Counted from the first letter of the stretch, positions 11,557 to 42,723 are shown. The stretch: 43,848 nt of DNA from an uncultured Actinomycetes bacterium (GCA_903921405.1 CAIXPV010000070.1:1-43848); one strand, 5' to 3'. The notes: a model not told the origin generated them from the letters alone. Made by a program: numbers and translations.

Positions 11557-14500
11557 CTAAACCAAGCAGTTCGGCCCCAAGATCGATTTAAGATCAGCGC
11601 TTAAACTTGGCGAAGACGTGATTAACGCATCAATCTTCATATATGTATCACTGCCATTGTCTTTGATTTGTAGATGAACTTCGCGTTTGCCCGGATGTGA
11701 GCGCAATATCTCTTTGATTCGATCAACAATCGGAGGGGTGCACTGAGCAATCGGTAACGCAATAACTAGAGGGCCAGCTGGACCCGATGAAATATCTGGC
11801 ATCGACATTTCAAGGGCGGTAAATCGAACTGTGTCTTCGCGACGATCTACTCGACCTCTGACGGTAACAATCCGATCTTCAGTTAATGACATTGAATATT
11901 GATTATACGTATTAGCGAAAAAGAGAACTTCCAGTGAACCCTCTAAATCTTCAACACTGACAACTGCCCATGAAGCGCCTTGCCTTGAAACTTTGCGGGT
12001 AACGCTGGTAATTAATCCACCAATTGTGACTATTGATTCGGACTGTGCACCATCATCTAATAACTCACTTATAGTCATGTCAGTATTTGCGCGCAAGACG
12101 TGCTCGACACCTAACAGTGGATGATCTGAAACATATAAACCTAACATCTCCCTTTCATAACTGAGCAGCATGGCCTTATCCCATTCGCCCTTTGGAATAT
12201 CTAAATCAATTGCTGCTACATGACTAATGGATTCGCCACCGAAAAGATCGAACTGACCAATTGCCTCAGCGCGTTTTGTCTCAATAACAGAGTCGATAGC
12301 CTCTAGATATATCGCCATCAAGCCTTTACGAGTTGCATCCATAGAACCAAATGCCCCTGCTTTAATGAGGGACTCAATGGTTTTCTTATTACAGACTTGA
12401 GCATCTACCTTTGCTAAGAAGTCTCCAAATGAGGTGAAGCGTCCCTTTGATTCGCGTGAAGCCTTGATGGAGCCCACAACGCCTTCGCCCACATTTCTAA
12501 TTGCAGCTAAACCAAAGCGGATGTCATTTCCACGTGGGGTGTATTCGGCATCAGATTCATTGACATCAGGCTCAAGAACTTTAATTCCCATTCGTCGACA
12601 CTCGCTTAAATACAGCGCGGATTTGTCCTTGTCATCACGAACGCTCGTTAATAGCGCTGCCATGTATTCAGTCGGATAATTAGCCTTCAAATATCCCGTC
12701 CAATATGAGACGACTCCATAACCGGCTGAGTGAGCACGGTTAAATGCATAGTCAGAGAATGGAATAAGAACATCCCACAGACGTTTAATCGCAGCAGTAG
12801 AAAAACCATTTGCCTTCATTCCAGCTTCAAATGGAACGTACTCTTTATCCAGAATCTCTTTGTTCTTCTTACCCATTGCCTTACGTAACAAATCTGCGCG
12901 CCCAAGTGAGAAGCCCGCAACTTTTTGAGCGATGGCCATAACTTGCTCTTGATAAACGATCAAACCATATGTGTCTCCCAAAATCTCCTGCAACGGCACA
13001 GAGAGCTCAGCGTGAATTGGCTCTACAGGTTTGCGGTGATTCTTTCGATCGGCATAGTTATTATGCGCATTTTCACCCATCGGTCCTGGCCGATAGAGCG
13101 CAATAACTGCAGAGATATCCTCAAATGAATCTGGAGACATAGAGCGCAGCAGGGCTCGCATTGGCCCACCGTCGAGTTGGAAAACTCCGAGTGTATCCCC
13201 GCGGGATAAGAGCTCATATGTTTTCTTATCATCCAAAGTTAAATCTTCAAGCACTACATCGATGCCCTTATTTGCTTTTATGTTTAGTAGCGCATCATCT
13301 AAGACTGAGAGATTTCTTAGGCCAAGGAAGTCCATCTTTAAGAGTCCAATTGCCTCGCAAGCGCCCATATCGAACTGAGTGATGATTGCGCCATCGGCTT
13401 CTCTGCGATGAATGGGGATAACATCTAATAAAGGCTCACGGGACAAGATCACGCCTGCAGCATGAACACCCCATTGGCGCTTAAGTCCTTCTAGACCACG
13501 GGCAGTATCTACAACTCGTTTTGAATCATTATCGGTTTCATAAAGAGAGCGGAACTCCCCTGCCTCGCCATAACGATCATCTTTTGGATCAAAGACGCCA
13601 CTTAAAGAAATATCCTTACCCATTACTGACGGCGGAAGCGCTTTCGTTAATTTTTCACCTACAACATATGGATAACCAAGCACGCGAGTTGAATCCTTAA
13701 TCGCTTGCTTAGATTTAATCGTTCCATAAGTAATTATCTGAGCAACACGATCTTCGCCATACTTAGTTGTTGCATATCGAATCATCTCGCTGCGTCTGCG
13801 CTCATCGAAGTCCAAGTCGATATCTGGCATCGAGATACGTTCTGGATTTAGAAAGCGCTCGAACAACAGACCGTGCTCAAGTGGATCAAGACCTGTGATG
13901 CCTAATGAATAAGCAACCAGTGAACCTGCAGCTGAACCTCGACCTGGACCTACACGAATACCAACATTCTTAGCGTGGGCTACGAGGTCTGCAACTACTA
14001 AGAAGTAGCCCGGAAAACCCATAGTCTGCATAACGCCGAGTTCATATGCCAAACGGTCGATGTGGGCTTGAGTTACCCGTGCACCTAATCTGGCCGTAAG
14101 TCCGCGTTCTGCCTCTTTTTGTAGCCAAGAATCTTCGCTCTCCCCTGCCGGCACAGTGAACTGTGGCAGCAGATTTTCACCTTCGCGCAACGTTACATTG
14201 CAGCGCTCGGCGATTAATAGTGTGTTGTCACAGCTCTCGGGAATCTCTTTAAAGAGTTCGCGCATCTGGGCCGGGGTTTTTACATAGAAACTATCGTTAT
14301 CAAATTTAAATCTCTTAGGATCTGCAAGCGTTGACCCGGATTGAACACATAAAAGCGCCTCGTGTGCACCAGCATCACTTTGTAATGTGTAGTGCAAATC
14401 ATTGGTTGCAAGCAACGGTAGACCCAGATCTTTGCCAAGCTTTAGTAAATCGGCCTTTACTCGAGATTCGATCTCAATTCCATGATCCATGATTTCAAGG

Positions 14501-15054
14501 AAGTAATTGTCTGCACCGAAAATATCACGGTAATCACTGGCCGCTTTTATCGCCTCTTTGTAAGCACCCATTCGCAGACGAGTTTGAATTTCTCCACCCG
14601 GACATCCAGTTGTAGCAATTAATCCCGTTGCATACTGCGCAAGAAGTTCGCGATCCATTCGAGGTTTGTAGTAATAACCTTCAAGTGATGCCAACGATGA
14701 AAGTCTGAAGAGATTTCCTAAACCAACGTTATTTTCAGCAAGAATAGTCATGTGTGTGTATGCCCCACCACCAGAGACATCGTCTTCTCCGCCATCGGCC
14801 CACTTAACGCGCTTCCTATCAAATCGGGATTCAGGAGCCACATAGGCTTCAATTCCAATAATTGGTTTAACCCCGGCTTTTTGCGCACTCTTATAAAAAT
14901 CAAATGCGCCAAAAACATTTCCATGATCAGTCATAGCAATTGCAGGCATACCTTGTCGCGAAACCTCGCTCATTAAATCTGAGACCCGCGCAGCACCATC
15001 GAGCATTGAATACTCGGTGTGTACGTGAAGGTGTACGAAGTTATCTTTAGACAT
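11557..15054 (-). CDS. dnaE: Replicative DNA polymerase III alpha subunit (DnaE1)
   Basis: Intact PHP (HLHVHTEYS, TDHG, NDLH), GRGSAAGS, PDIDLDF, KMDFLGL, clamp motif QFDLF; no intein-sized insert. Confidence 0.98.
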   Translation of the reverse strand: MSKDNFVHLHVHTEYSMLDGAARVSDLMSEVSRQGMPAIAMTDHGNVFGAFDFYKSAQKAGVKPIIGIEAYVAPESRFDRKRVKWADGGEDDVSGGGAYTHMTILAENNVGLGNLFRLSSLASLEGYYYKPRMDRELLAQYATGLIATTGCPGGEIQTRLRMGAYKEAIKAASDYRDIFGADNYFLEIMDHGIEIESRVKADLLKLGKDLGLPLLATNDLHYTLQSDAGAHEALLCVQSGSTLADPKRFKFDNDSFYVKTPAQMRELFKEIPESCDNTLLIAERCNVTLREGENLLPQFTVPAGESEDSWLQKEAERGLTARLGARVTQAHIDRLAYELGVMQTMGFPGYFLVVADLVAHAKNVGIRVGPGRGSAAGSLVAYSLGITGLDPLEHGLLFERFLNPERISMPDIDLDFDERRRSEMIRYATTKYGEDRVAQIITYGTIKSKQAIKDSTRVLGYPYVVGEKLTKALPPSVMGKDISLSGVFDPKDDRYGEAGEFRSLYETDNDSKRVVDTARGLEGLKRQWGVHAAGVILSREPLLDVIPIHRREADGAIITQFDMGACEAIGLLKMDFLGLRNLSVLDDALLNIKANKGIDVVLEDLTLDDKKTYELLSRGDTLGVFQLDGGPMRALLRSMSPDSFEDISAVIALYRPGPMGENAHNNYADRKNHRKPVEPIHAELSVPLQEILGDTYGLIVYQEQVMAIAQKVAGFSLGRADLLRKAMGKKNKEILDKEYVPFEAGMKANGFSTAAIKRLWDVLIPFSDYAFNRAHSAGYGVVSYWTGYLKANYPTEYMAALLTSVRDDKDKSALYLSECRRMGIKVLEPDVNESDAEYTPRGNDIRFGLAAIRNVGEGVVGSIKASRESKGRFTSFGDFLAKVDAQVCNKKTIESLIKAGAFGSMDATRKGLMAIYLEAIDSVIETKRAEAIGQFDLFGGESISHVAAIDLDIPKGEWDKAMLLSYEREMLGLYVSDHPLLGVEHVLRANTDMTISELLDDGAQSESIVTIGGLITSVTRKVSRQGASWAVVSVEDLEGSLEVLFFANTYNQYSMSLTEDRIVTVRGRVDRREDTVRFTALEMSMPDISSGPAGPLVIALPIAQCTPPIVDRIKEILRSHPGKREVHLQIKDNGSDTYMKIDALITSSPSLSADLKSILGPNCLV

Positions 15055-29663: not shown

Positions 29664-30721
29664 TTACTTAGCTACCCATTGTGCGTAAAACAGGCCTAAG
29701 CCGCCGGCCACACTCAAACCAGCAATGATCCAAAATCGAATTACTACAGTGATCTCGGCCCAACCTTTAAGTTCAAAATGGTGATGAAGCGGCGCCATTT
29801 TAAATACGCGCTTTCCGCCGCTGATTTTGAAATACAGGGTTTGAATAACTACCGACATAGTGATTATTACGAATAAGCCGCCTAGCGGAATCAGTAGGAG
29901 CTCCACACGAAGTGTTGCAGCAAGGCCTGCAATGGCAGCACCCAGTGCAAGTGAGCCTGTATCTCCCATAATTATCTTTGCTGGTGCTGTATTCCACCAC
30001 AGGAACCCCGTACACCCTCCAGCAAATGCTGCAGCAAGTACCGCAAGATCTAAAGGATCGCGAACTTGGTAACAGCCACTCGCGGCATTGACCGCACAGC
30101 TTTGCCCGAACTCCCATACTCCAATTAGTACGAAGGACAGGAACGTCATGATCGTGGCGCCAGTAGCTAAGCCATCTAACCCATCGGTGAGATTAACTCC
30201 ATTACTTGCCGACATCACCATAATAATGATCCAGATGATTGCAAGAATTGGTCCTAAGTAAATGCTAGTTTCGCGAACCCCAGATAGATAATGTGAAATA
30301 GGTGTCAATGAATCGGCATCTGCAAACTTTAGACCAGGAAACCAAAAATACCTGCCAACCCCGCTTGGCTCATTAACTTATAGCGACCCTTTAATCCACG
30401 AGAGTTTTGCCGCGAAACTTTTAACCAATCATCGATGAAACCTATAGCGCCTAAACTCACGACTAATCCGATAACTAGGACTGCAGATACCGTGACTGAG
30501 TTCCCCGAAATCACATGTGCTGCGCCATAGCCAACAATGGCAGCAAGAATAAAAATAATTCCGCCCATGGTTGGTGTTCCACGTTTGGTGTGATGACTAC
30601 TTGGTCCATCATCTCGAATTATCTGTCCATAGCCTCTGCCAGCCAAAATTTTTATGAGACCTTTTGTTCCAAAGAGTGAAAAGGCAAGTGCTATTGCCGC
30701 AGCGATTAGGATCTGTCTCAT
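29664..30721 (-). pseudogene. mraY: Phospho-MurNAc-pentapeptide translocase split by an apparent 1-nt deletion near 30333 (likely sequence error; otherwise frameshifted)
   Basis: 30329..30721 has KRGTPTMGG and IGFIDDW; 29664..30308 has [26 protein letters not shown]; the -1 frame reads [12 protein letters not shown] across the junction. Confidence 0.9.
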
Positions 30722-37490: not shown

Positions 37491-37844
37491 TTACTGGTTA
37501 TTGCGCTCATCCCAACGAGATTGCAGCTTGGTATGTAAGCCCTTGCTCTTGCGAGCGCCTTTGGTAGCCGATCGAGGCGAACTGGTGCCAAAGGATGAGA
37601 GTGCAAGGATGATCCCAGCCAAGGCAATAGCAAAGCCAAGGACTCCTACTGGGGTTAGCTTTGCGACAAGGCCCGTAAATAGAACTGTAATCCCCATGAG
37701 AACTAAGCCAAGTGAGGCCAATAATCGTGGTCGCTTAGGTGAGGGACCTGTGCCAGAGAGTGCTGAAAACAGGCGTGGATCCTCGGTTAAGAGGGCAGCC
37801 TCCATCTCTTGGAGCATTCGCTTCTCATGATCTGACAAAGGCAT
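37491..37844 (-). CDS. DUF3040-family membrane protein (start re-called to ATG 37844)
   Basis: MPLSDHEKRMLQEMEAALLTEDPR N-terminus, two TM helices, RWDER tail; usual neighbour upstream of mraZ in Actinobacteria. Confidence 0.88.
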   Translation of the reverse strand: MPLSDHEKRMLQEMEAALLTEDPRLFSALSGTGPSPKRPRLLASLGLVLMGITVLFTGLVAKLTPVGVLGFAIALAGIILALSSFGTSSPRSATKGARKSKGLHTKLQSRWDERNNQ

Positions 37845-37890: not shown

Positions 37891-39060
37891 CTACTCCTGC
37901 TCGGTCGGCTTAATCAGACGGGCTGGACGCACACTTCCAGCGCCAAAGCGCTCTCTGGCTCTATCTATAGCCCCGTCGGCCTGTCTCCAACCGCTCTCAC
38001 GTGCACCCAGGACCATCTGTTCTGGTGCCCCACTGCTTAGATTCTCAAGACTCACGCCCACCAAACGAAGTCGCGCCCTGTCGATCTTTAACGCTTGGTA
38101 GAGCCCTTTAACGACTTCATAGATTTCATGGGTTCCCTCCACAGGAAGTGAGAGAGTCTTAGATCTATTAATAGTCGAGAAATCTGCAAAGCGCACTTTG
38201 ATGGAGACTGTCTTTGCAAATAAATCTTTATCGCGCAACCTAGCTGATGCGCGTTCCGTTAATCGCAAGAACTCAGTCAGAATCTGAGTTGGATCATCTA
38301 AATCTTGCGGAAAGGTTTCGGCGGCACTAATACTTTTTTCTGCATCTTGAGGTGATACATCTCGGTAGTCCCGACCCCATGCCAATTCATATAACGATGC
38401 ACCGCTTGCTTCCCCTAATGCGCGAATCAGAGTTGTTCGAGGCAGATTGGCGATGTCTTCAATTGTGCGAAGCCCTAAGCGCTCTAATGTTTCGGCAGTC
38501 TTTGGTCCGACTCCCCACATGGCTTTAATTGGTAATGGATGCAAGAAAGTTAGAATGCGGTCGGCAGTGATCTCTAACATTCCATTTGGCTTACAGTGTT
38601 GGGATGCAAGTTTTGCAATGAACTTTGATGGTGCGATTCCAACCGAGCATGTTATTCCCTCTTGAGATTCAATCTTGGCACGAATAGCAGTAGCGATTTC
38701 GCGCGGAGTGCCTAATAATCGTTGCACGCCACTGACATCTAAGAAAGCCTCGTCAAGTGAGATGGGTTCGACCCATGGCGTAAAACTTTCAAAGATCTCC
38801 ATGATGTGACTTGATACCTCTTGATATCTAGCCATATCAACGGGAAGGAAAATCGCATGTGGTGCCAATCGCCGTGCACGTCCTACTGGCATTGCCGCAT
38901 GGATTCCAAATTTGCGAGCCTCGTAATTTGCTGCCGATACAACTCCTCGTACACCCATTCCAATAACAACTGCTTTGCCTTTGAGTTCAGGGTTGTCTCG
39001 TTCGGCCACAGATGCAAAGAATGCATCCATATCCACATGAAGGATTGAGGCCGTTGTCAT
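37891..39060 (-). CDS. dinB: DNA polymerase IV (Y family)
   Basis: HVDMDAFFASV, SAANYEAR.FG, SLDEAFLD, KFIAKLAS, WGVG; catalytic acidic residues intact. Confidence 0.96.
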   Translation of the reverse strand: MTTASILHVDMDAFFASVAERDNPELKGKAVVIGMGVRGVVSAANYEARKFGIHAAMPVGRARRLAPHAIFLPVDMARYQEVSSHIMEIFESFTPWVEPISLDEAFLDVSGVQRLLGTPREIATAIRAKIESQEGITCSVGIAPSKFIAKLASQHCKPNGMLEITADRILTFLHPLPIKAMWGVGPKTAETLERLGLRTIEDIANLPRTTLIRALGEASGASLYELAWGRDYRDVSPQDAEKSISAAETFPQDLDDPTQILTEFLRLTERASARLRDKDLFAKTVSIKVRFADFSTINRSKTLSLPVEGTHEIYEVVKGLYQALKIDRARLRLVGVSLENLSSGAPEQMVLGARESGWRQADGAIDRARERFGAGSVRPARLIKPTEQE

Positions 39061-42000
39061 ATTGCCAGCGTACTTTCTTTAGCTCGCCAACTTTCATATG
39101 CCGCGCGTAAATCCCACGCGCCGGTTCCACGGATTGAAATCCCACGCGCACCCGTGCGGCGGGTTTGGCCTCTAACTAGTAGCAGGGATGTCGAATACAG
39201 CGTGCTGGCGTAATCGCCTTGAACGTCGGTGAAAAATGCCGAGTCACTGCAGCCATATCCATCATCGAGGGTTAGAAAAATAACGCGCTTTCCCGAACGC
39301 ACTGGCGGAGTCTGCAGTGCAACCTTGATGCCGGCTACAAGAACGCTGGAGTTAGAACGCTGGGCTAATAACTGTGACGATCTCACCGCGCCGATTGCAT
39401 TTAGGAAGTCGCTATAGAACTCAATTAAGTGCGCCGACATATCGATACCTAAGCGCTCTATTTCATGGCGCACGATTTCAGCTGAGTTCATATCAGGTAG
39501 ACCGCTACTGATCAGAGCAGGGGCTGGAAAAGCTAAGTTCATCTGTGCACCAGAGATGGCCTTACCCGCAGAGCGCTGCAGATCAGAGAAATGTAATAAC
39601 AGGTCGCGACGATTAACGTCGGTGTGCAGGCGATCAAATGCACCGGTCAAAATCGCACTCTCCGTTACTGGGGCACTACTTCCTGAACGGTGAACAAAAT
39701 CAGCTAAGTCCACATAGGGACGCCCAGCAATAATAGATGTAACTTCACCATCACTGATCTTTGCAATCGTCGATAACGCTATGCGAATCGCAGCGCCTCT
39801 TTCTTCAACGCGATAGAGCGAATCTGATTCATTAATATCTAAGGGAGCAATGGCGATTCCCATGTGGCGTACCTCGTCAACGATCAAACGCTTGGGATAC
39901 ATACCAGGATCGTGCGTAAGAACTCCCGCTAAAAAAGCTGCAGGATAATGTGTTTTAAGCCAGGCCGATTGATATGTAGGCAGCGCAAAGGCTGCAGCAT
40001 GTGCTTTACAAAAACCAAAGGATGCAAAGGCGCGCAGTAGATCCCAGATCTTGGTAATAACTGCAAGCTCATAGCCTTGTGCAGTTGCTGTCGGAAAAAA
40101 CCAATCACATACTTCTTGCTGGCCAACTTTGTCCCCTAATGCGCGACGTTTTTCATCGGCGCTAGCTAGGGATGCACCAGTCATCTGGGCAATGATTTCA
40201 ATGACCTGTTCGTGAAAGACAACAACTCCTTCTGTATCACGCAAAATCTCATGCAGATCAGGGTGAATAACCTGGGCTGGGCTCCACCCGTGACGGGCCT
40301 TTAAAAATGGCGTAATCATGTCGCCTTTAACTGGGCCAGGTCTAAATAGGGAGATATCGATAATTAAATCGGTGAATGTTTTAGGCTCTAGTTTTCCTAC
40401 TAATTCGCGTTGACCCGGACTCTCTATCTGAAACATCCCCAGAGTACGTGTTGATTGAATTAACTCATACGTTGCAGAATCATCTAAAGGCACTGTATCG
40501 ATATCTACTTTTGTATCCTGTGCGCGTTCAATTTCAGTCAGTGCATATGAAATTGCCGACTGCATGCGTACACCTAAAACATCTAACTTTAATAAACCGA
40601 TAGCTTCAACGTCATCTTTATCAAAGACCACCATGGGGTAACCGCTTGCGCTAGCCATGAGCGGAGTGCGATCGAGCAGGCCTCCATCAGATAAAACAAT
40701 GGCGCATGGATGCATCGCTAAATGTCTAGGAAGACCATCAAGGCGTTCGGCAAGAGCGATAGTCATAGCCGTCAAAGGCGCAGAGATATTAAGAGATTTG
40801 AGTTCGGGCAGGTTTTCAAGAGCGCTAGAAATATTGCGCGCGCGCACATGTGGCATTGATTTGGCCAGTAAATCAATCTCCATCGCTGGTAAGCCAAGGG
40901 CTGCTCCTGCATCACGAATTGCATGCCTGGCACGATAGGTATCAACCATTGCAACAGTGGCACATCGTGATTGATTATTAGAGCTATCCCAGTTTGTATC
41001 ACCGTAACGCTTAAAGACCATGTCATAAATTTCAAGGCGACGGTGCGATTCAACATCGATATCGATATCAGGCAAAGCCCTGCGCAACGGTGAACAAAAA
41101 CGCTCCATCAATAGACCATGCTGCATTGGTTCAACACCAGAGATTCCAAGCAAGTGACAGATTAATGAACCGGCTCCGCTGCCGCGCGCGGCAACACGAA
41201 TACCCGCATTTCGTGCCATGTCACAAATATCGGCAACGGTTAAAAAATAGGATTCAAAGCCAAGTGTTGCAACCGTTGCTAGTTCATCATCTAAACGCAT
41301 GCGTGCCTGCTTAATGCTCTTAGAATCGCTATAGCGCCAGTTGATACCGGCCTCACTGCGCGTGCGCAAAAGCGTGCGCATCTGATGCGCTGATTCGGCG
41401 CCGACAACGTGGGGTTCGGGTAAGTGCGCCCCGCCTAATCCAATATCGCGTGCAGGCGATAACAGAGCGCGCTCGGCCCATGCTCTAGTTGTCGCCAATA
41501 GTTCTCGTGGTGTGCGCTCCCCCGCTGCGCGTGCGATTTCAGCAGCTAAGGCGATCATCTCGTCACCGGATTTTAAAAAGCCTTCGGCATTGCTGCGTTC
41601 AACATGGCGTGGATGCAGCGGTACTAATTGACGAGCGCAATCTAAAACATCGGCAACTGGCCCATCGGTGCGATCTCGCATACGAACCGCATTTGTAATA
41701 ACTGCATCGATGTCATGATCACGTGCAAAAATTAATGACTTAGCGGCTTGCGATGTAGAACGTGGGCCGCGACCTGCAGCTAAATGTGAAATACATTCAA
41801 TGGCATTGCCAGCAAATAGATCGCGAGTGATGTTAAATGTTGTAAAAGCTGCATCTATATGGTTATCCGTTAGCAATCTGCCGACAGGTGATTCAGGCCC
41901 GTGCAAGGCATAGAGATTTGAACTGTAATGGCTAAAGCGCTGTAAGAATTCTAGTGTCAGAACAGGATTCCGATTATCGGCAACCATGGTCAGTGAAGTC

Positions 42001-42284
42001 AGCAGGCGACATAGCGAGCGCCATCCTCCATCACTGTGAGCCAATAAAGTAATACGGTTTTTATCGCCACCTATATCAATACCGAGATTGACTCCGATAA
42101 TCGGTGCGATACCAAACTGAACACAGCTCTGCGCAAAGCGAACGGCCCCTGCCAAGCCATCACGATCGGTGAGCGCTAGTGCAGGCATTTCAAACTCTGC
42201 AGCACGAGCTACTAGATCACTTGGTTGGGTCGTGCCGTATTTGAGTGAATACGCACTTGCAACGTTGAGGTGTATAAAACTCAT
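39057..42284 (-). CDS. dnaE2: Error-prone DNA polymerase III alpha paralogue (start re-called to ATG 42284)
   Basis: RGSGAGS, PDIDID, PRHLAMHPC, KLDVLG, FQIESPGQ, FGFCKAHAAAF; degenerate PHP (HLNVASAYS); ATGA overlaps on both sides. Confidence 0.94.
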   Translation of the reverse strand: MSFIHLNVASAYSLKYGTTQPSDLVARAAEFEMPALALTDRDGLAGAVRFAQSCVQFGIAPIIGVNLGIDIGGDKNRITLLAHSDGGWRSLCRLLTSLTMVADNRNPVLTLEFLQRFSHYSSNLYALHGPESPVGRLLTDNHIDAAFTTFNITRDLFAGNAIECISHLAAGRGPRSTSQAAKSLIFARDHDIDAVITNAVRMRDRTDGPVADVLDCARQLVPLHPRHVERSNAEGFLKSGDEMIALAAEIARAAGERTPRELLATTRAWAERALLSPARDIGLGGAHLPEPHVVGAESAHQMRTLLRTRSEAGINWRYSDSKSIKQARMRLDDELATVATLGFESYFLTVADICDMARNAGIRVAARGSGAGSLICHLLGISGVEPMQHGLLMERFCSPLRRALPDIDIDVESHRRLEIYDMVFKRYGDTNWDSSNNQSRCATVAMVDTYRARHAIRDAGAALGLPAMEIDLLAKSMPHVRARNISSALENLPELKSLNISAPLTAMTIALAERLDGLPRHLAMHPCAIVLSDGGLLDRTPLMASASGYPMVVFDKDDVEAIGLLKLDVLGVRMQSAISYALTEIERAQDTKVDIDTVPLDDSATYELIQSTRTLGMFQIESPGQRELVGKLEPKTFTDLIIDISLFRPGPVKGDMITPFLKARHGWSPAQVIHPDLHEILRDTEGVVVFHEQVIEIIAQMTGASLASADEKRRALGDKVGQQEVCDWFFPTATAQGYELAVITKIWDLLRAFASFGFCKAHAAAFALPTYQSAWLKTHYPAAFLAGVLTHDPGMYPKRLIVDEVRHMGIAIAPLDINESDSLYRVEERGAAIRIALSTIAKISDGEVTSIIAGRPYVDLADFVHRSGSSAPVTESAILTGAFDRLHTDVNRRDLLLHFSDLQRSAGKAISGAQMNLAFPAPALISSGLPDMNSAEIVRHEIERLGIDMSAHLIEFYSDFLNAIGAVRSSQLLAQRSNSSVLVAGIKVALQTPPVRSGKRVIFLTLDDGYGCSDSAFFTDVQGDYASTLYSTSLLLVRGQTRRTGARGISIRGTGAWDLRAAYESWRAKESTLAI

Positions 42285-42562
42285 ACCGATCTGATAATCC
42301 ACTGACCGCTGAGTTCGTCGCGTTCGAGTTCAAATGTTGTGAGCGATCCAATGGGTGCGGCCTCTACACGCCAGACTGCACGTGCCTGATCATCGGGGCG
42401 ATACTTGCCATCGCTAATGCGATTCCACCATCCCCCGGCTTCACACCATCTCGATAAAACTGCATGGATGCGAAAGCGTCGGCCTTTGAAAGTAAATTCA
42501 ATCGGCGTTGTAGCCCCATCGATAGTTACATCATGTGCGGGATTAATCTGAGGGACTGACAT
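42281..42562 (-). CDS. Small DUF6504-like / ImuB C-terminal-like protein (93 aa; start re-called to ATG 42562)
   Basis: P.EF.FKGRRF.I..V..RW...GGWW...RAVWRVE...FEL.RD..SGQW pattern; SD AAGGAGG; translationally coupled to dnaE2. Confidence 0.8.
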   Translation of the reverse strand: MSVPQINPAHDVTIDGATTPIEFTFKGRRFRIHAVLSRWCEAGGWWNRISDGKYRPDDQARAVWRVEAAPIGSLTTFELERDELSGQWIIRSV

Positions 42563-42594
42563 CGCTAGCAAAGCCTCCTTCGGGCTGTGGATAT

Positions 42595-42610
42595 TCGAAC
42601 AGGTGTTCGA
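42595..42610. promoter_or_regulatory. LexA (SOS) box
   Basis: TCGAAC-AGGT-GTTCGA, exact match to the actinobacterial TCGAAC-N4-GTTCGA consensus, upstream of dnaE2/dinB. Confidence 0.93.
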
Positions 42611-42633
42611 AAAATAGCCCCAAGGACTGACAA
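42611..42633 (-). promoter_or_regulatory. RecA-independent (PafBC-type) DNA-damage promoter
   Basis: Minus strand tTGTCAG-N10-TATTTT matches tTGTCRG-N10-TA-N3-T and abuts the LexA box. Confidence 0.72.
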
Positions 42634-42723
42634 AAGGCAAGCTCGTGAGCGTGTCGAGATACGAAGTAGTTGAACTTTCAACTATCCTTCTCGTTGTATC
42701 CACCTACTCACCTAAGGAGCTCC

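Follow-up and report, generated by a model that had tools for sequence, protein, structure and literature searches.

A compact actinobacterial operon predicted to encode a DnaE2B-type translesion complex with a catalytically intact DinB

The window analyzed here, a 43,848-nt contig of an uncultured Actinomycetes bacterium (GCA_903921405.1, CAIXPV010000070.1:1-43848), carries an intact operon of three genes on its minus strand, coding for a stand-alone ImuB C-terminal domain (ImuB-C), the polymerase DnaE2 and a catalytically intact DinB (Pol IV). The operon is likely to be induced by DNA damage, and we judge the chance somewhat better than even that it encodes the actinobacterial translesion complex of DnaE2B, a Y-family polymerase (PolY), ImuB-C and RecA, a composition whose role in damage-induced translesion synthesis is itself a prediction in the literature.

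The operon and its host genome

The three genes are chained by ATGA overlaps at both junctions (DUF6504/dnaE2 and dnaE2/dinB) and form a 4.7 kb core of 49% GC; the coordinates and overlaps reported in an earlier note on this DNA were borne out. The first gene (42281..42562) specifies a 93-aa protein with six predicted beta strands, which matches Pfam family PF20114 (DUF6504) at E 5.3e-10. It is followed by dnaE2 (39057..42284), coding for 1075 aa from its ATG, and by dinB (37891..39060), which specifies a 389-aa Pol IV (PRK03858) with catalytic residues D10, D103 and E104 intact.

The earlier note had compared the small protein to a free ImuB C-terminal domain, and its family membership upholds this. 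A DUF6504 profile of 78 proteins matches the product of an 80-residue Deinococcus deserti gene lying between imuY and dnaE2 at E 1.5e-11 (the best of 168 decoys reached E 0.75), and the 93-aa protein by itself matches the same D. deserti protein at E 0.0037. That gene is annotated as DUF6504 in RefSeq and has been named a stand-alone ImuB-C (PMC8072749). Because the profile match, the RefSeq label and the published name converge, assignment of the 93-aa protein to the stand-alone ImuB-C family is solid. Among the best 150 of 1438 profile matches, all were of stand-alone size save one 3874-aa repeat protein, and a search among longer proteins gave 10 matches, of which three carry a HEPN fusion and not one has a Y-family domain. 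A Foldseek search of the PDB returned no match at E up to 0.001, in line with the description of ImuB-C as a 'novel fold' (PMC12926913), and the ESM Atlas gave no usable match outside PF20114. DUF6504 is not mentioned in the open-access literature text.

The dnaE2 product is a DnaE-type polymerase by Pfam, with HhH and OB domains and without the C-terminal domain, and scores 632 bits against the NCBIfam error-prone polymerase model PRK05672, below the 939-bit cut-off. Its catalytic aspartates D408, D410 and D568 are invariant in 20/20 aligned sequences, so that it would be a working polymerase and not a pure scaffold, while none of the nine metal ligands of the DnaE1 PHP site is matched and DnaE2 would therefore lack proofreading. 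It is 44–51% identical to DUF6504-linked DnaE2s of other families and 29–30% identical to three other DnaE2s and to DnaE1, and we infer that it is of the DnaE2B type.

The source genome comprises 1.50 Mb on 193 contigs, has a GC content of 46.7% and is 94.5% complete. It carries one recA, one lexA, one dnaN, one Y-family gene (the dinB of the operon) and two DnaE genes, the replicative one in the same window; pafBC is also present. At this level of completeness, two ImuA models matched only recA (the single RecA-family match), and that below cut-off, and an ImuB query gave no match. The statement of the earlier note that imuA and an inactive imuB are lacking is thus supported genome-wide, and a canonical imuAB elsewhere, which it had named as contrary evidence, was not found. 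ImuA' over cut-off was likewise absent from single-contig genomes of the genus (five in one survey, seven in another). Since the named records with 82–86% DnaE2 identity are Candidatus Planktophila, the host would be a Planktophila-like freshwater actinobacterium.

DUF6504 was detected in 51 of 61 relatives, the source genome included. Among 151 genomes of the class that are at least 90% complete, 89 have DUF6504, 48 have ImuA' over cut-off, two have both and 16 neither; these were counted from lists, and kin are not independent. The tallies for relatives (61-genome set; DUF6504, HEPN and others) include the unpublished genome G042, and those for the class include G064 and G071, all three being excluded from the alignments. 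Gene order was compared for 20 of 52 DUF6504 matches plus 60 further chosen regions. DUF6504, dnaE2 and dinB are adjacent and in that order in 17/17 genus loci, and the larger relatives mostly show DUF6504-HEPN-dnaE2-(methyltransferase)-dinB in the same place beside DUF3040 and mraZ genes. This survey agrees with the suggestion of the earlier note that similar gene sets may exist in other Actinobacteria.

The promoter region

A perfect actinobacterial LexA (SOS) box, TCGAAC-N4-GTTCGA (42595..42610), precedes the operon and directly abuts the -10 hexamer of a PafBC-type promoter (42611..42632, minus strand) that consists of TGTCAG (42632-42627), 10 nt and TATTTT (42616-42611). The box is the sole perfect match in the window and one of two in the genome, where the second separates lexA from a divergent gene, and it is retained in relatives, being present upstream in 20/20 chosen loci. 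Its support is this conservation, as the chance figure for the window (mean 1.71) allowed two mismatches and is hence uninformative. The recA gene of the same genome is preceded by a 14-bp core LexA box. A degenerate -35-like hexamer, TTGCCT (42635..42640, minus strand), whose role is putative, lies 18 nt before the -10 hexamer; TTGC.. occurs at the same place in genus loci and TTGAC in most larger relatives.

The sequence TGTCAG-N10-TATTTT fits the published PafBC consensus, tGTCgg(N10)tA(N3)T (PMC8635444). It occurs at the same offset in 17/17 genus loci and, 8–10 nt further from the box, in 10 of 33 box-bearing operon loci from other families; in a survey of 80 loci, 43 of the 66 that bear a box have it. 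That the element is specific to the genus was considered and dropped, since it is present in operon loci of other families. The same arrangement of PafBC-type element and LexA box precedes recA of the source genome, where a tandem WYL pair matches the PafB and PafC structures (E 7e-43 and 4e-25). A point against PafBC control is that the motif alone is not enriched genome-wide (12 matches at spacer 10; 4–15 at spacers 7–13), so the case for it rests on positional conservation; a sigma-70 scan did not have the operon promoter among its listed sites. No RNA record carrying this sequence was listed either, which says nothing for or against expression. Induction of the operon by DNA damage through two regulators is likely from these promoter features. 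Of the 'one SOS promoter' of the earlier note, the LexA box stands, and sole SOS control does not, as a PafBC-type element is also part of the promoter. Because mycobacteria are already known to place the canonical mutasome under both PafBC and SOS control (bioRxiv 2021.08.05.455301), the element is an annotation correction rather than a new principle.

The second perfect LexA box (G000:C139:1775, where G000 is the source genome) lies between lexA and a divergent 149-aa ORF, membrane-LysM-like, upstream of nrdR (labels by eye). Other intergenic PafBC-like motifs are found at G000:C32:1892 (minus strand), before recA and with a LexA box, and at C182:1727 (plus), C83:318 (minus), C98:4144 (plus) and C58:1284 (minus); those outside recA precede a DEDD-exonuclease-like ORF, a nuclease-like ORF and two unannotated ORFs (again labelled by eye).

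DinB as a possible partner of DnaE2

DinB passes the NCBIfam PRK03858 cut-off, and its D10, D103 and E104 align to Escherichia coli Pol IV and are invariant in 24/24 orthologues. The sequence QMVLG (residues 348-352; 38005..38019, minus strand), with Q348 invariant in 24/24, is its candidate clamp motif. A RecA N-terminus-like (RecA-NT-like) motif of 16 residues lies in the conserved tail (residues 362-377; 37930..37977, minus strand) and aligns to the N-terminus of the genome's own RecA with a score of 34, which was reached by 8 of 2000 shuffles.

Residues whose conservation depends on linkage to dnaE2B favour DinB as a possible partner of DnaE2. The comparison covered 68 orthologues: 37 with a linked dnaE2B (the genus being represented by 4 of its 17, and two coming from genomes without a DUF6504 match), 20 from ImuA' genomes, 7 of family f3, and 4 set aside as unclassified. 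The thumb residues T210 and R213 (38422..38433, minus strand) are kept when dnaE2B is linked, T210 in 37/37 vs 9/20 of the ImuA' type and R213 in 36/37 vs 7/20, as are the little-finger residues D255 and R328-A329-R330 (38071..38298, minus strand), with D255 in 37/37 vs 1/20 and R330 in 37/37 vs 4/20. Of 131 columns conserved to at least 94% among the linked DinBs, 81 are not lost in any of the seven ImuA'-type families, and the six most often lost are D255 (7 families), R330 and R328 (6), A329 (5), and R213 and T210 (4). Two short-branch ImuA' clades stand at 0.71 and 0.74 to the linked consensus, against 0.75 within the linked group, and both lose R213, D255, R328 and R330. Within family f20, the one linked DinB keeps these four residues and its five ImuA' sisters do not. 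D255 and residues 328-330 are presumably neighbours in the little finger, judging from Pol IV topology. Two of the six residues, T210 and R213, lie in the thumb, and the thumb is the element of ImuB that is placed on DnaE2 in a published model (PMC12926913).

Multimer modelling, which the earlier note had proposed for a wider set of partners, covered DinB with residues 572-1075 of DnaE2. ESMFold2 gave a score of 0.49 (best of three controls, 0.00), with 100% contact agreement between runs and a partner pLDDT of at least 79; the output names no residue contacts. Of 157 solved complexes 116 attain the mark, as do 2 of 215 mismatches, but with a score of 0.60 or less the solved complexes number only 18 and include none of the others, whereas both mismatches fall there, so the model lends weak support to a predicted DinB-DnaE2 contact.

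Several observations weigh against DinB as a subunit of the complex. The ImuA' genome at locus L073 keeps T210, R213 and 328-330, and family f3 is intermediate, with D255 kept in 6/7 and A329 in 0/7. The residue pattern rests on about three changes of the ImuA' label on an unfinished quick tree, and the analysis began from R213, which was first spotted by eye. DnaE2 has a beta-clamp motif candidate of its own, QMNLAF (residues 914-919; 39528..39545, minus strand), close to QFDLF of DnaE1 in the alignment, which keeps an invariant Q and the pattern Q[LM]x[LFIM]x[FL] in 20/20 aligned sequences; such hexamers have been noted in some actinobacterial DnaE2s (PMC3919608). DinB consequently need not supply the clamp contact, and of the clamp-supplying, RecA-binding Pol IV of the earlier note, the intact active site and both motifs are retained and the role as clamp supplier is weakened. 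An orthologue of dinB is also found at this position beside the dcw cluster in ImuA' genomes, frequently accompanied by HEPN and methyltransferase genes and without dnaE2, and in family f3 dinB is unlinked from DUF6504-dnaE2. A type consisting of DnaE2B and ImuB-C only is also listed in the literature, with an ipTM of 0.89 (PMC12926913), and the DnaE2 of Streptomyces coelicolor, which is linked to an inactive DinB2, is not needed for UV resistance or mutagenesis (PMC3273824).

A rival explanation is that the operon encodes two co-regulated but separate machines, with ImuB-C and DnaE2B as one unit that reaches the clamp through the DnaE2 motif, and DinB as half of an ordinary PolY-RecA pair that shares the operon only because this is an ancestral damage-inducible locus beside the dcw cluster. 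The clamp candidate in 20/20 sequences, the persistence of dinB with HEPN and methyltransferase genes in ImuA' genomes, its separation in family f3 and the published DnaE2B-ImuB-C-only type all fit such an arrangement. It is at odds with the linkage-dependent conservation of the DinB thumb and little finger, with the ESMFold2 model and with the retention of the ATGA overlap in a streamlined genome, and we regard it as a serious but rather unlikely explanation.

Less probable still is that the complex is not a mutasome at all, and that the chief task of DnaE2B is gap filling, for instance following excision repair in cells that grow slowly or not at all, or else it only serves as a scaffold for DinB, which would make most of the induced mutations. 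Loss of dinB1/dinB2 lowered UV mutagenesis in S. coelicolor and loss of dnaE2 did not (PMC3273824), a Caulobacter paper describes DnaE2 acting with excision repair in non-replicating cells, and the invariant aspartates speak for a working polymerase rather than a pure scaffold. Against this explanation, DnaE2 is predicted to lack proofreading, and in D. deserti the related imuY-imuB-C-dnaE2 cassette is needed for UV mutagenesis. We consider this explanation improbable.

The remaining doubt concerns the small protein, for which direct comparison with fused ImuBs gives weak scores. DUF6504 against the tails of four actinobacterial ImuBs gave hhalign P values of 0.064 and 0.11, which are not significant; hmmsearch of fused ImuBs gave E 0.13–0.41 for three of five, each match lying at the C-terminal end; and Pfam found no DUF6504 match at E up to 1 in the four ImuBs whose tails were tested. 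The connection of DUF6504 with the fused C-terminus depends on Aravind et al. (PMC3765255). When the small protein and an ImuB tail were modelled with AlphaFold2 (pLDDT 75 for each), both showed six strands in matching order around the WW motif, a likeness of secondary structure and not of coordinates. The fold and profile comparison envisaged by the earlier note was thus favourable in strand order and weak by hhalign. That the protein is merely a distant look-alike, binding damaged DNA (as Aravind et al. proposed for ImuB-C) or something other than DnaE2, would suit the weak scores but is very unlikely given that it shares a family with the ImuB-C of the literature, that the strand order matches, that PF20114 was over cut-off in the Caulobacter control genome (a match at genome level) and that DUF6504 and ImuA' nearly exclude one another (both in 2/151 genomes).

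The DnaE2B-PolY-ImuB-C-RecA complex would then operate as follows. Upon DNA damage, LexA would leave the box that covers the start site, and PafBC, activated by single-stranded DNA, would engage the -26 element, full induction requiring both events. Translational coupling would yield near-equal amounts of the three proteins, and the dead PHP domain of DnaE2 would be the docking site for ImuB-C, in agreement with published models. The tail of DinB would contact RecA, and its thumb and a patch on its little finger would meet the C-terminal half of DnaE2, each polymerase holding the clamp by its own motif. DinB might then insert opposite the lesion and the non-proofreading DnaE2 extend. A stronger version, which we advance tentatively and hold to be possible though short of an even chance, is that this is a minimal natural translesion machine with two active polymerases, in which Pol IV docks on DnaE2B by a T210/R213/D255/R328-R330 surface that decays once ImuA'B takes over, with a clamp motif on each polymerase and a PafBC-and-LexA gate; it would represent a functioning stage of the ImuAB mutasome from before the fusion, preserved in freshwater actinobacteria with streamlined genomes.

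Gene order in relatives and published systems

HEPN family genes occur in none of 37 genomes of the genus vs 21 of 24 others; streamlining has stripped the operon at the genus loci of HEPN, of the methyltransferase gene and of its long leader. HEPN (SAV_6107) and often a SAM methyltransferase gene lie inside the operon at loci L043-L049, L051, L053, L090-L108, L128 and L129. ImuA' genomes, too, retain the HEPN gene together with dinB, and in some cases HEPN and DUF6504 form a single fused protein (P0276, P0278, P0279). By a crude pattern search, a TCGACCC/CGACCCC motif is found in most long leaders of HEPN-bearing operons (L043-L047, L049, L051, L053 and others) and in 0/17 short genus leaders, and L109 has the motif without HEPN.

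Mixed states were also seen. At L082 (G142) an imuA' lies near a DnaE2 inside a HEPN-methyltransferase-dinB locus, L089 (G166) and L127 (G124) have dnaE2B-dinB in genomes without a DUF6504 match, and G073 and G099 carry both DUF6504 and ImuA'; such states may be traces of one system giving way to the other. The dnaE2 gene of L052 (G045) is interrupted by one TAA, L194 has a fragmented dinB and L169 a doubled DUF6504 match, each reflecting decay or assembly error, and L159 is an intact locus with a longer DnaE2 match.

Downstream of dinB by 46 nt, and outside the core, is a DUF3040 gene (37491..37844, minus strand), with mraZ and the dcw cluster beyond it. The listed terminator-like sites include one at 37468-37447 but none separating dinB from the DUF3040 gene, and read-through is possible. 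We rejected recent horizontal acquisition of the operon, given the synteny of the locus with DUF3040 across families and a GC content (49%) near that of the genome (47%). The replicative dnaE1 (11557-15054, minus strand), at a distance of 24 kb from dnaE2, is surrounded by his, trp, ileS and dcw genes, and has an intact PHP site (HHDHEHCDH) and a QFDLF clamp motif. The mraY gene (29664-30721, minus strand) is split by a frameshift near 30330 into ORFs of 130 and 214 aa; it is intact in 4/4 genus relatives checked, and the frameshift is probably an assembly error in an essential gene.

The closest published system is the DnaE2B group of Timinskas et al. (NAR 2026; PMC12926913), described as an apparently active PolY with stand-alone ImuB-C and RecA, found only in Actinobacteria, and modelled for five species with a mean ipTM of 0.84. 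Their example, from Tessaracoccus lapidicaptus (VEP41449-51), has consecutive accessions for ImuB-C, DnaE2 and PolY. The window system shares the stand-alone ImuB-C, the DnaE2, an apparently active PolY with RecA-NT, the lack of imuA and imuB, the actinobacterial host and, judging from these accession numbers, the consecutive gene order, and is likely, on sequence grounds, an example of this type. The earlier note had placed the novelty in the split-ImuB mechanism, and this does not hold, as the same composition has been described and modelled there; split-ImuB variants had already been set out in PMC6511836. Since the system type is in print, the gene set is not a discovery. The 2026 genome set includes six Planktophila genomes, and the supplement may already cover the Planktophila-like lineage; the open-access papers listed in searches make no mention of 'Planktophila' or 'Nanopelagicales'. 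The excerpts of the 2026 account say nothing of promoters, of PafBC, of DinB residues that depend on linkage or of a streamlined host. The additions made here are the PafBC element by the LexA box, the minimal core without HEPN and methyltransferase genes (most larger relatives sampled carry HEPN, often with the methyltransferase, in the operon), the linkage-dependent DinB residues and the weak support from a DinB-DnaE2 fold.

The D. deserti imuY-imuB-C-dnaE2 cassette, of which imuY and dnaE2 are needed for UV mutagenesis (PMC8072749), shares a split ImuB, a DUF6504-family ImuB-C, the lack of imuA and SOS control, but differs in an ImuY predicted to be inactive, a lexA within the operon, the gene order and a DnaE2 that is only 30% identical. 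Canonical ImuA'-ImuB-DnaE2A systems (mycobacteria, Caulobacter) have the same modules (Y-family core, clamp motif, RecA-NT, ImuB-C and DnaE2) and, in mycobacteria, SOS and PafBC control; however, their ImuB is fused and dead and ImuA is required, whereas the window genome lacks both, and the window DnaE2 is 29% identical to an ImuA'-linked DnaE2. The Streptomyces dnaE2-dinB2 operon (PMC3273824) belongs to the DnaE2B group according to the 2026 paper and shares the 4-bp dnaE2-dinB overlap and SOS induction, but its DinB2 is classed as inactive, it has no ImuB-C, and its DnaE2 is dispensable for UV mutagenesis.

Stand-alone ImuB-C is common in Actinomycetia (89/151 sampled genomes), and the system type has so far been predicted only. 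The three-gene, 4.7-kb core at 49% GC is easy to express, and specific DinB residues and promoter bases are offered for asking whether a DnaE2 complex truly includes an active Pol IV among its subunits. The answer bears on how fusion and inactivation gave rise to ImuB, and on the ways in which slow-growing lake bacteria exposed to UV deal with mutations and produce them.

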